This document shows positions 50,612 through 54,504 of a DNA stretch of 64,000 nucleotides, piece after piece. Numbering within the stretch: position 1 is the stretch's first letter; every line of letters starts with the position of its first letter. The translations under genes and the position numbers were made by a program. Source of the DNA: Pseudovirgaria hyperparasitica. Its lineage: Eukaryota. A model generated the notes under the pieces. That model was not told the origin of the DNA. It ran no database searches and worked only from the letters and a program-made list of their open reading frames with translations. The stretch lies in assembly GCA_010093815.1 (NCBI GenBank), contig ML996572.1. One strand, given 5' to 3'.

Positions 50612-51326
50612 GGTAGACAGTTTCGCCTTGTCTGATCGATACTTCAATTGCAGTCTTTGTTGCTAGGTTGCTTTCGTATTTCAGCTAACATGGCGAGAAA
50701 CCCTAGCTCTTTTCCCCGCTTTGGTACCACACTAGTTGAAATACGAACATTTCGGGCAACTTCGGCCATTTATGCTATCTTGAATTTGAAGTAGATACCG
50801 TCGTAGACTTTGATTCTCGTACCACCTGTAAAGGGCTTTCTTGACTGGGACTCGTTCAACATGCGGAAGTATACGTCTCACTCGCGCCCGAGTCCTGAAT
50901 AGGGATATAGTGAGGGACGTAGTAAAGAGTCTGCATAAGAGCCTGCATGAAGGCGAGGTACTGATAATGCAACATGTTTGACCACGCTGAGTGACCATTA
51001 GAATAGCTCGAAGACATTTGTGATGCGTGGGAATGTCATTCGGGAACACAGACTCGGGACGTGAACAAACTTCGAGCATATTGATGTCGAGAGTAACAAG
51101 GTCAATTAGATGAACTACGATGCAATAAGGCTACAGTTTTGGTACCTATAAGGCTTTTAATTGATGACAACCGCTCCTAAAGAAAAACAAAGTTAAATAG
51201 AACTTCCGGACTTGATCCAAGCTGATCCGTTAGTCTCGTTAAAGTACAAGGGAATAGGTTGCAAATTAGTAGCAGCTGCCTGTAGTTACCTCGTGAAAAG
51301 TTTAAGCTTACACGATGTCAGTCAGA

Positions 51327-53348
51327 TCACGCTGGTGGGGGTGGAGGTGGAGGCGGTTGATCGGACGGGGGCTAAGGTTCTCGTCAGCTTATCTGGTTTC
51401 TTTCCTATTTAGTCAGAAGCCTACCGGGGGAGGAGGGGCGTCATTCGGAGGGGGCGGTGGAGGAGAGCCCGCGCCATATGTCTGAAGAAGTTGTCCAAGA
51501 TTGGCCATGCCTGGAGGAGCGGTGGGCATACCAGGAGCACCCATACCAGGAGCACCATAGCCTCCTTGCTGTTGCTGTCCATAATTAGAGTAACCGTAAC
51601 CGTACTGCTCTTGCTGTTGAGCTTGAGCCCATGGAGCAGCAGAAGCCTGCGAAGGGGGAACATAAGCGCCGTATTGTTGGTCCTGACCGCCTCGACTCCC
51701 TCCAGCAGCCCAAGGAGGCGCGGCCGAGCCTGCACCCTCGCGGTCGTTTCCAGTACGGTTGGCCCATGGCGCAGAAGCACCAGTAGGACCTCTCTCCCAA
51801 GGCTTAAGATCGCGACCACCCTCTTGCTGGTTGTCGTAACCACCAGGGCCAGCTTCGATACGATTCTGACCTCCGGAGCCGCCGATAGCGCCACCACCAG
51901 ACAATTCTTGCATGAGCGACTCATATTCGCGATCGACAGCATCGCCACCACCGATGCGAGCAGGAGGTCGTCCGTTCAAGCCACCAGCAGGAGCACCTCT
52001 ATCGTCGTTCCGCCAATTGGCTCCACGTTGACGGTCAGGGCAATCACGAGCCATATGTCCGGCATTGCCACATACGCGACAAATGATATTCGCAGTAAAG
52101 TTCCGTTGCTCTGGGCAATCATATTTCCGGTGCCCGATTTGACCACAATTCTGACAAGCCTGATTTTCATCATCACGTAGAGTTCCGTTAAGAGCGGCGA
52201 GCTCACGCAGCTGATTCCGCTTAAGTTCATTCTGACCCTCGGGAATGGAAGCAGCCTGCATAATTAGCATGAAATCGAGAGTGAGTGAACAAATACTTAC
52301 AGTTTCGATGACATTGTGGATGAGTTTCTTCGCCTTATTGACCTTTTCTTCGGTATCGGCCATGATCAAACAATGCAAGTCTTCTTCCTGGTTGCTGGTG
52401 TGAGCGGCGTCAGATCGGCCCTTTCCTTCTTTCACGGAGCCTTTGCCACGAATTGCAATCTTGGCTTGGGATTCCGTTTCCATCTTCTTGAGAGTATTAC
52501 CACGCGGTCCAATGAGAAGTCCAACTATTAGTCGCAAAAAAGGCTGTGTTAGTCTGTGATCATATATGAAAAAATGTAATGGGACGCGTTAGTGCACAAT
52601 CATGCTGCATGTTAGGAGAACCTAGGTATGCACCATGATCGGGAAAGCAAAATGTAGGACAAAGGGAAAGGTTAGAAAGTGAGGGTTAGCAATCATACTG
52701 AAGTTAATCTCCGGATAATCATTGACCGGTACGTAGACCTTCTCTTGGGTCTTGGTCGGGCGTCTGTAGTCAGAAGGCGGATGGTAGTTAGGAATAACTT
52801 TCATAGCCTTCTCGATCAACTTGTGACGTTCGTCCTCCAAGCGCTTCCGGTATCGATATTCACGCGTGTTGACACGGCGACCGAAATTGTCGTATTGAGG
52901 CGGAGGGGATGGAGACCTGCGCTTGTCAGTATCTGCTTATGAGTAGAGGGAACATTGAGTTATAGACATACCTGTCCCCATCAGCTGGAACAACATCATT
53001 GATTCTGAGCTTCTCGCTGATCTCTTGAATGCGAAGATGCAAGGTGTACGCGTCAAGCTGTTCGCTAGTCATGTTAGACATGATAGCTGTTGGAAGACCC
53101 ATCAGGCCGGCCGCTTTGTTTTCTTGAGCATCACCCCATCGATTACGCTTCTTCCTGCGACGTGCACCTTCAAAGGCCTCATCGACTGTTGATTTGGGAA
53201 CGGGTTCAGGACTGCGACCGCGCTTCATGGACGGCTGAACCGGGTCGTAGCTATTGCTTTCGTTGCCTGTATTTTCGCTACCAAAGCGACGGCGATTCCC
53301 CAGAGGAACATTGTTCGAACCAGTGATGCCCTGATTTCTCCACGCCAT
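51327..53348 (-). CDS. MSL5: Branchpoint-bridging protein / splicing factor 1 (KH-QUA2 domain, two CCHC zinc knuckles, Pro-rich tail), 5 exons
   Basis: ULM motif [21 protein letters not shown] domain [19 protein letters not shown], knuckles [14 protein letters not shown] and [14 protein letters not shown]. Introns 52971..52917, 52698..52525, 52300..52256 and 51424..51372. Stop TGA 51327-51329. Confidence 0.97.
52525..52698 (-). promoter_or_regulatory. BBP intron 2 with clustered branchpoint motifs (putative autoregulatory element)
   Basis: 174-nt intron with NCTAAC at 52690-52685, 52676-52671, 52616-52611, 52593-52588 and 52553-52548, plus ACTAAT at 52532-52527. Confidence 0.65.
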
Positions 53349-53757
53349 GGTGATGATGTGAAGGAGAGATGAGGGTGAGAAGACGATGTTGTGGCAAGAA
53401 AACTAATTTCGAGGTTGCGGTCGATGGCAGGAGCAGGCAGGAGCGCACGCTAGCTCCTGAACTAGCGCGATCTTTGTTCTGCACGTGTTGGCGTGACTCC
53501 GCTAAAATGATTATCCGTAGCGGAGATTCAGAATGACCCATCAGGACGAAGTGCGAATAATTCTGACATCATCCCAAAGGCGCGTTGCGTGTTGCCAATC
53601 ATGCGTATGCGCCTGGTAGACCAGTGCCACGGCCAGACAACTATGATGATATAGCAATGGCCAATAGGATAGTATACGATTAGTGATACTCCTCGTTAAA
53701 AGACACTCTACTGCTCGAGACTATCCCATCATCTAGATACACTTGGCACTCTTGAAG

Positions 53758-54504
53758 ATGCCCCCAAATCTCGACCTCTATACCGACCAAACACCCAACG
53801 GCGTCAAGTCCACCATAACCCTCGAAGAACTTGATTTACCGTACAATGTCCACCACATCGACATCTCTACTAACGAGCAAAAAGAGCCGTGGTTCCTCGC
53901 CATTAATCCCAATGGTCGCATTCCTGCCTTGACGGACGTCGGCAGCGACGGCCAAGAGATCCGACTTTTCGAATCTGGTAGCCTGATGTTGTACCTGATC
54001 GAGCACTATGACCCTGAATACAAGATCTCGTATCAGAGGGGTAGCAGAGAGTACCACGAGATGCTCAACTGGCTATTCTTTCAAAACGCTGGCGTCGGAC
54101 CCATGCAAGGGCAGAGCAACCATTTCACGCGGTACGCGACAGAAAAGATCGAGTACGGAATCAACCGATACCAAACAGAAACTCGGCGCCTATACCGAGT
54201 GCTAGACAATCATTTGAAAGAGACCGACAATGATTACCTGGTAGGCAACAAGTTTACCATTGCGGACATAGCGCATTTTGGGTGGGTCGCTTGGGCGGGC
54301 TGGGCTGGTGTCGACAACAGGGAGTTTGAGTATTTGAAGAAGTGGGAAGAGAGGTGTGCGGCGCGGCCGGCGGTGGAGAAGGGGCGCAATATCCCTACAC
54401 CCGATAAGCTAAGAGATATTCTGAGCGACCCGAAGAAGACAGAGGAGTATGCACAGCATCATACGAAGTGGATACAGAAAGGGATGAAGGACGATAGTGC
54501 ATAA
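53758..54504 (+). CDS. Glutathione S-transferase, Ure2p/YfcG-like
   Basis: LYTDQTPNGVK, INPNGRIPAL, LFESGSLMLYL, WLFFQNAGVGPMQGQ and TIADIA. Single exon from ATG 53758. Confidence 0.95.
   Translation: MPPNLDLYTDQTPNGVKSTITLEELDLPYNVHHIDISTNEQKEPWFLAINPNGRIPALTDVGSDGQEIRLFESGSLMLYLIEHYDPEYKISYQRGSREYHEMLNWLFFQNAGVGPMQGQSNHFTRYATEKIEYGINRYQTETRRLYRVLDNHLKETDNDYLVGNKFTIADIAHFGWVAWAGWAGVDNREFEYLKKWEERCAARPAVEKGRNIPTPDKLRDILSDPKKTEEYAQHHTKWIQKGMKDDSA

Follow-up and report, generated by a model that had tools for sequence, protein, structure and literature searches.

The second intron of the gene for the branchpoint-binding protein (BBP/SF1) of Pseudovirgaria hyperparasitica, as read in a window of 64 kb (the whole stretch of 64,000 nucleotides of DNA that was analysed), is a real and deeply conserved candidate for a cis-regulatory element. 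Among 33 distinct introns at this position, 32 share one layout, where a weak donor with an adjoining CTAAC is followed, usually, by a hairpin and an internal CTAAC, then by a strong branch site and a weak distal acceptor. As judged from these sequences, it seems rather probable that the intron works as a negative-feedback switch: plentiful BBP would fill the extra motifs, the intron would stay in the message, and no RNA-binding BBP would be made.

The BBP/SF1 gene occupies the minus strand from 53348 to 51327, and its spliced protein of 564 aa carries the SF1 helix-hairpin, KH and zinc knuckle domains in that order (Pfam PF16275, PF22675/PF00013 and PF00098), which assigns it to the BBP/SF1 family; homologues of exon 3, with 99-100% identity, are named branchpoint-bridging protein. 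Introns 1 to 4 measure 55, 174, 45 and 53 nt in the window, and all four are joined out in assembled contigs, including the 52524/52699 joint of intron 2. The contigs that span these joints come from two runs of one sample, the kind of which is not on record. A glutathione S-transferase ORF of 248 aa (window 53758-54504, plus strand) lies head to head with the gene, 410 nt from the BBP start codon. The parts of the gene are the following:

52972..53348, minus strand: exon 1, with the start codon and the first half of the SF1 helix-hairpin domain (Pfam PF16275; contig joint)
52699..52916, minus strand: exon 2, with the second half of the SF1 helix-hairpin domain, ending in YPEINF plus one base
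52525..52698, minus strand: intron 2 (174 nt), the putative regulatory element (contig joint, motif count, orthologues)
52301..52524, minus strand: exon 3, with the KH domain (Pfam PF22675, PF00013)
51425..52255, minus strand: exon 4, with the zinc knuckles and a low-complexity tail (Pfam PF00098)
51327..51371, minus strand: exon 5, up to the stop codon (contig joint)

Exon 4 presumably also holds the QUA2 region of BBP/SF1. The original prediction had described intron 2 as a 174-nt sequence with TAG as its acceptor, splitting INF|IGLLIG; the sequence runs from GTATGA to TAG, and the contigs join exactly these ends, at the start of the KH domain. It was also right about the short length (45-55 nt) of the other introns, which hold 0 CTAAC each, and about the count of five CTAAC and one CTAAT, which fall at intron nt 10, 24, 84, 107 and 147, and at nt 168, respectively. 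Once the first 6 and the last 30 nt are removed, the core of the intron retains 4 CTAAC; at least 3 were found in 0 of 20,000 dinucleotide shuffles of this core, and 4 were reached in 1 of 20,000 mononucleotide shuffles. Intron 2 is also the densest CTAAC cluster on either strand of the window, in which the word is, taken as a whole, rarer than expected (64 found vs 92 expected). A narrow pattern for the donor and the double CTAAC had its sole match in the genome at the BBP/SF1 intron 2, and a pattern for the 3′ layout matched nothing, the genome's own intron 2 included, whose letters differ from the pattern. The elements of the intron can be placed as follows:

52693..52698, minus strand: weak donor GTATGA, with A at +6 (comparison of orthologues and controls)
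52685..52689, minus strand: CTAAC 1 (intron nt 10-14), conserved and immediately past the donor
52671..52675, minus strand: CTAAC 2, which also belongs to the donor-proximal cluster
52597..52641, minus strand: predicted hairpin, shortly before the internal CTAAC 4 (fold)
52622..52624, minus strand: in-frame TAG, the stop reached if intron 2 is retained
52611..52615, minus strand: CTAAC 3, within the hairpin, with no aligned motif in the relatives examined
52588..52592, minus strand: CTAAC 4, the internal motif that is conserved, with the main branch site 40 nt downstream
52548..52552, minus strand: CTAAC 5, the likely main branch site, with branch A at 52549, an extended match to U2 snRNA and the acceptor 24 nt away
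52544..52546, minus strand: skipped AG, 5 nt past the branch A
52525..52532, minus strand: productive acceptor, overlapped by an ACTAA motif (contig joint)

Many of the orthologous introns share a TGATC-like word (window 52560-52565) that precedes the main branch site by 6-10 nt. The reading of intron 2 as a nested (twin) intron or a poison exon was rejected, because a narrow search of the window's intron for an internal donor, either GTRMGT or GTATGA, found none. Rfam gave five weak matches across 51000-53600, all of them below gathering scores.

Orthologues were gathered by scanning metagenome contigs with exon 3, and the best 80 of 422 confirmed loci were kept. Among these best 80, an intron occupies the same place in the same phase in 75, three loci are cut short, and two, L045 and L066, have no intron 2. 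L066 is genomic; L045 is likely a cDNA, because all of its introns are absent and it is nested among intron-bearing relatives. Clustering of the 76 introns (that of the window included) at 80% identity gave 33 clusters, and 32 of these distinct introns, with sizes of 137-264 nt, contain 2-6 CTAAC. The extra motifs have thus been kept across orthologues, so that the first of the refuting conditions set by the original prediction does not hold, and they stand at constant places with respect to the splice sites, whereas the spacers diverge. The single exception, L077 (1576-1672), has an ordinary intron of 97 nt at the same position. This ordinary intron, together with the lack of any intron in L066, indicates that the element is dispensable in some lineages, and makes both loci natural controls for the feedback idea. 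Of 30 resolved clusters, 4 have no intron 1, and intron 3 is missing from 9 of 31; in L030, L031 and L068 both are absent and intron 2 is the sole survivor of the three introns compared.

In a quick tree, where 4 of 67 branches are starred and which does not polarise L077 and L066 as ancestral or derived, the carriers of the element group with named Pleosporales, Sordariomycetes, Lecanoromycetes and Leotiomycetes. Short protein models from Aspergillus, Penicillium, Xylaria, Podospora, Bipolaris and Xylogone read into intron 2 with peptides such as SMITNPLT and SEIANPLT, the translation expected of a donor-plus-CTAAC start, from which we infer that the element reaches the Eurotiomycetes. An exon 2 search over 150 representatives found no such read-through peptide in the 45 inspected at 75% identity or less, many of which may be spliced models, and the outer taxonomic limit of the motif-laden intron is a soft one. 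Three distant BBP fragments that are 80-85% identical over exon 2 (P0312, P0314 and P0331) continue as SKILTLT or SKILILT, tails that may correspond to a variant donor followed by CTAAC repeats.

The peculiar anatomy of the element becomes clear when it is set beside 48 control introns, namely the first and third introns of these loci. CTAAC reaches a density of 2.4 per 100 nt in intron 2, compared with 0.69 in controls and 0.11 in the flanking exons, although the 33 clusters are mutually related, and all contrasts of this kind overstate their independence. The motif is found 148 times in sense and 0 times in antisense orientation in the orthologous introns, and it falls within the first 20 nt of 31 of the 33 introns 2 and of 0 of the 48 controls. 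Donor position +6 is A in 27 of 32 introns 2 and never T (0/32), the reverse of the controls (T in 40/48, A in 0/48). An internal CTAAC is present in 30 of 32 introns, 29 of which have it 35-59 nt before the main branch site. The latter was taken as the CTRAY closest to the intron end among those 8 nt or more away from it, and terminal motifs, with their A 3-6 nt from the end, were set aside because four controls skip an AG that close. So defined, the main branch site lies 20-29 nt from the acceptor in all 32 introns, compared with 8-18 nt in those 38 controls that contain a CTRAY, and an AG at +5 to +7 after the branch A is skipped in 30 of the 32. The acceptor itself is AAG in 21 of 33 introns 2 and in 2 of 48 controls, and ACTAA occurs in the last 9 nt of 22 of 32 introns 2, a place where 0 of 48 controls have CTAA. 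For comparison, RAG acceptors amount to 5.7% in Fusarium, as given in the available text of PMC5677156.

Pairing with U2 snRNA, scored against this genome's own U2 gene with 13 possible pairs, averaged 9.7 at the main branch site (10 in the window), 7.0 in the controls and 6.4-6.6 at the extra sites. The motif forms CTAAC, CTGAC and CTAAT occur 148, 7 and 8 times in introns 2 and 18, 9 and 12 times in controls. The extra sites thus keep the exact CTAAC with only baseline pairing of the flanks to U2, which a protein reader would fit better than U2. A third U2-like gene, L084 (G000:C5:750169-750371), scores 87.7 bits, against 117-120 for the others, and diverges right after the branch-pairing region. 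A Leotiomycete-like subgroup (L002, L006, L010, L012, L014 and kin) has an AG 27-30 nt after the internal CTAAC, a gap that mirrors the spacing from main branch site to acceptor, and the reading frame of this AG is not conserved.

The hairpin is a more uneven feature. In the window, the 60 nt before the internal motif fold with z = -4.0, and both CTAAC 3 and the CAG at 52607-52605 lie inside the predicted hairpin, the CAG in its stem. Taken intron by intron, z falls below -2 in 11 of 30, with a mean of -1.66. A consensus of 17 pairs in a subgroup of 14 sequences is 92.9% paired, and 3 of the 17 pairs show a two-sided change, a modest covariation that was equally high in 103 of 500 shuffles. 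RNAalifold returned no consensus structure for a mixed alignment of 22 sequences.

An unproductive form of this message can be recognised among relatives. A search for BBP proteins of at most 312 aa, which excludes full-length products by design and gives no retention rate, found 1861 of them; among the 120 listed, intron 2 is read through by 109 and intron 3 by 8, a different splicing accounts for 2, the landmark is missing from 1, and 0 have an upstream acceptor. The intron 1 junction is joined in 84 of the 109 read-throughs (36 NCBI models plus 48 metagenome or Logan records), some of which may be genomic since 4 of 30 resolved clusters have no intron 1; in the case of the NCBI short models, gene finders can be led astray by nothing more than weak splice sites. 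More telling are pairs of close relatives. Within the cluster of Trichoderma harzianum, intron 1 is gone but intron 2 is still there in P0182 and P0409, on contigs of 2.2 and 1.9 kb, whereas P0403, P0404, P0406 and P0407 (contigs of 12-76 kb) run into intron 1. The Alternaria cluster offers the same contrast between P0126 and P0387, with intron 1 joined and intron 2 kept, and P0390, which runs into intron 1; P0124 and P0232 form a further pair of this kind. In the two named clusters, the contigs that have lost intron 1 and still carry intron 2 measure 1.9-2.4 kb, and such short contigs are best read as transcripts retaining intron 2.

An unproductive isoform, of presumed RNA origin, is thus present in the Trichoderma and Alternaria clusters, and none was seen for this genome, whose listed contig pieces show no upstream-AG joint and leave the middle of the intron uncovered; contigs being prone to drop rare forms, these pieces carry no information on retention here. 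Retention of intron 2 in the window would lead to the stop at 52624-52622, 25 codons into the intron, and to a product of 223 aa without the KH domain, the zinc knuckles and the proline-rich tail; products of this kind match the helix-hairpin family only. Each of the 33 distinct introns would bring in a stop if retained, as expected by chance at such length. The original prediction of unproductive BBP splicing therefore stands as far as an unproductive form exists in relatives, through intron retention, and its frameshifting alternative acceptors are without support.

Intron 3 is read through by 8 of the 46 listed short NCBI models (P0005, P0011, P0129, P0130, P0133, P0134, P0136 and P0181), and this intron may also be retained at times. 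Among long NCBI models, P0022, P0037, P0045, P0048, P0066-P0069, P0072, P0111, P0113, P0115 and P0400 insert 4-45 residues at INF|IGLL through an upstream AG or by reading into intron 2; these are probably gene-finder errors caused by decoy-like signals. For annotation, it matters that 36 of the 46 listed short NCBI models of BBP stop inside intron 2, and that 12 of the 56 longer BBP records listed use a different acceptor or read into it.

How could such a switch operate? With BBP scarce, engagement would be limited to the best site, namely the main one with its extended U2 pairing, and splicing would proceed to the distal AG. Under high BBP, the donor-proximal CTAAC cluster would become occupied as well. 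Sites that near a donor are too close to branch. BBP bound to them could not lead to branching, and U1 would be blocked or trapped in a dead-end early complex, while BBP on the terminal ACTAA would mask the productive AG. The retained intron would then yield the KH-less product of 223 aa, and would be degraded, detained or inactive. A binding motif of the gene's own product does occur above chance in the BBP pre-mRNA: the available part of PMC3064769 lists UGCUAAC, CACUAAC, GACUAAC and UACUAAG among the sequences bound by SF1, and the first three match motifs 1, 4 and 5 of the window. According to passages of PMC11585973, BBP binds the branch site with Mud2 in an early complex with U1, and the accessible text of a preprint (bioRxiv 10.1101/2025.10.29.685309) has Prp40 linking U1 and BBP, a link that matters for non-canonical sites. 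Weighing against the feedback, the sign of the effect is not readable from sequence, weak ends would make a long intron more prone to retention even if it were unregulated, and L077 and L066 do without the element. A more specific version, to which we would give slightly less than even chances, is that the decoy array of branch sites gauges free BBP, that its copies close to the donor trap U1 and BBP in a dead-end commitment complex, that the copy at the acceptor masks exon ligation, and that the KH-less fragment may titrate U2AF65.

Other explanations can be confronted with the same observations. The alternative CAG acceptors named in the original prediction do exist at 52607-52605 and 52546-52544, and their use would add 80 and 19 nt, both frameshifting, so that a change in BBP level might move splicing to upstream acceptors and NMD might remove the frameshifted messages. 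We regard this outlet as highly improbable, even if 30 of 32 introns preserve the AG at +5 to +7, with a frameshift in 24 of these 30, and even if unstable products could escape assemblies. That AG is nearer to the branch A than the acceptor of any of the 38 controls (8-18 nt), its in-frame share of 6 of 30 does not differ from one third (P = 0.08), the CAG at 52607-52605 is in a predicted hairpin stem, and an AG 8-30 nt after the internal motif is not general, being present in 11 of 32 introns 2. Use of an upstream acceptor was seen in 0 of the 120 listed short proteins, a count of low sensitivity, and a profile of the frameshifted tail, itself a weak test, retrieved 2 proteins among 119 candidates, both of them whole-intron read-throughs. 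An explanation that we hold to be unlikely, without being negligible, is that of a weak intron regulated by splicing load, stress or growth state and not by a BBP gauge, in which the motifs would be decoys for U2 snRNP or sites of another protein. CTAAC is indeed also the best match to U2, and the weak donor and acceptor, the hairpin and the long distance from branch to acceptor would all make splicing sensitive to conditions; however, the extra sites are without the extended U2 flanks of the main site, the array sits in the gene of the motif's own reader protein, and the narrow donor-plus-double-CTAAC pattern is unique to the BBP intron 2 in the genome.

The donor-proximal motifs could instead be an enhancer, where BBP would help U1 to hold the weak donor in a Mer1-like manner, with positive feedback or a threshold switch as the outcome. 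The bridge of Prp40 between U1 and BBP, with its weight at non-canonical sites (available text of bioRxiv 10.1101/2025.10.29.685309), speaks for this possibility, which we consider decidedly unlikely: positive feedback on a core splicing factor would presumably be unstable, and the motif over the productive AG and the AG that lies too close would be left unexplained. Control at the second step is very unlikely as the sole explanation. Here the spliceosome would stall after branching and the cut RNA would be discarded, as with the telomerase RNA of S. pombe, and the strong U2 pairing of the main branch site (9.7 vs 7.0 of 13 in controls) and its long distance to the acceptor (20-29 nt in 32/32 vs 8-18 nt in 38 controls) are the traits that trigger discard in SpTER1, as described in the consulted portion of PMC4299874. 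The donor-proximal cluster is nonetheless unaccounted for by discard, and the retained form appears to be unbranched, because its exon 2-intron junction is intact; discard could act in addition to retention. There is extremely little to recommend the motifs as a neutral by-product, either telomere-like repeats or duplicated branch sites. The donor-proximal cluster has a repeat-like look, but the motifs are strand-specific and fixed in position across four class-level groups of the tree while the spacers diverge, and this conservation largely refutes neutrality. The telomere-like version was rejected, since CCCTAA accounts for only 5 cases among 148 CTAAC.

If the feedback by BBP is true, the branch-site signal would be reusable as a concentration-dependent silencer, the 174-nt intron would offer a compact reporter of free BBP for Neurospora, Aspergillus or Trichoderma, and it would provide a test of how commitment complexes handle a branch site too near the donor. 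Were the array indeed a decoy gauge, it would represent an ancient homeostatic device for the early assembly of the spliceosome in filamentous ascomycetes, as well as a natural experiment on whether splicing is repressed by BBP together with a branch signal in the wrong place, and it would explain many truncated fungal BBP gene models. A literature search, mostly in openly accessible papers, found no paper on self-regulation of BBP/SF1 or on this intron 2. A search by terms in the main text of PMC3061054 (Corioni et al.) and PMC5640933 (Li and Breaker) revealed no SF1 self-regulation and no BBP motif, and the searched text of PMC4666396 and PMC13004596 holds no statement on BBP/SF1 self-regulation.

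The closest parallels come from S. cerevisiae, where, in the part of PMC11585973 at hand, the YRA1, RPL30, RPS14B and RPS9 proteins bind their own pre-mRNA and block the splicing of a weak intron, leaving an unproductive unspliced RNA. Those are proteins with other primary jobs, whereas BBP is a core spliceosome factor and its putative silencers are copies of the branch signal itself. Splicing-factor genes are well known for unproductive splicing, as in the poison exons of SR proteins and in PTB. The BBP intron resembles this class, exemplified by SFSWAP in the accessible text of PMC4666396, in that a conserved intronic sequence is tied to a stop-bearing isoform; unlike the SR, PTB and SFSWAP cases, it has no internal exon, and the outlet seen is retention of the whole intron. 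With the TER1 intron of S. pombe (PMC4299874, in the excerpts available) it shares a branch site with extended complementarity to U2 and an acceptor that lies far from it, but the BBP intron 2 is fully spliced in a coding gene, its U2 match is imperfect (10/13) and it bears the extra motif array. Competition between SF1 and QKI at dual ACUAA sites, as presented in the available sections of PMC13004596, is similar in that several ACUAA occur per intron and occupancy by a STAR-family protein can repress; the repressor there is QKI on target exons, and the candidate repressor here is BBP on its own intron. Finally, Mer1-dependent introns of S. cerevisiae carry a protein-binding element just behind the donor, according to the same portion of PMC11585973, and a comparable element is predicted here. 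Mer1 is a meiosis-specific activator, and the motif of the BBP intron 2, in contrast, is the branch consensus.
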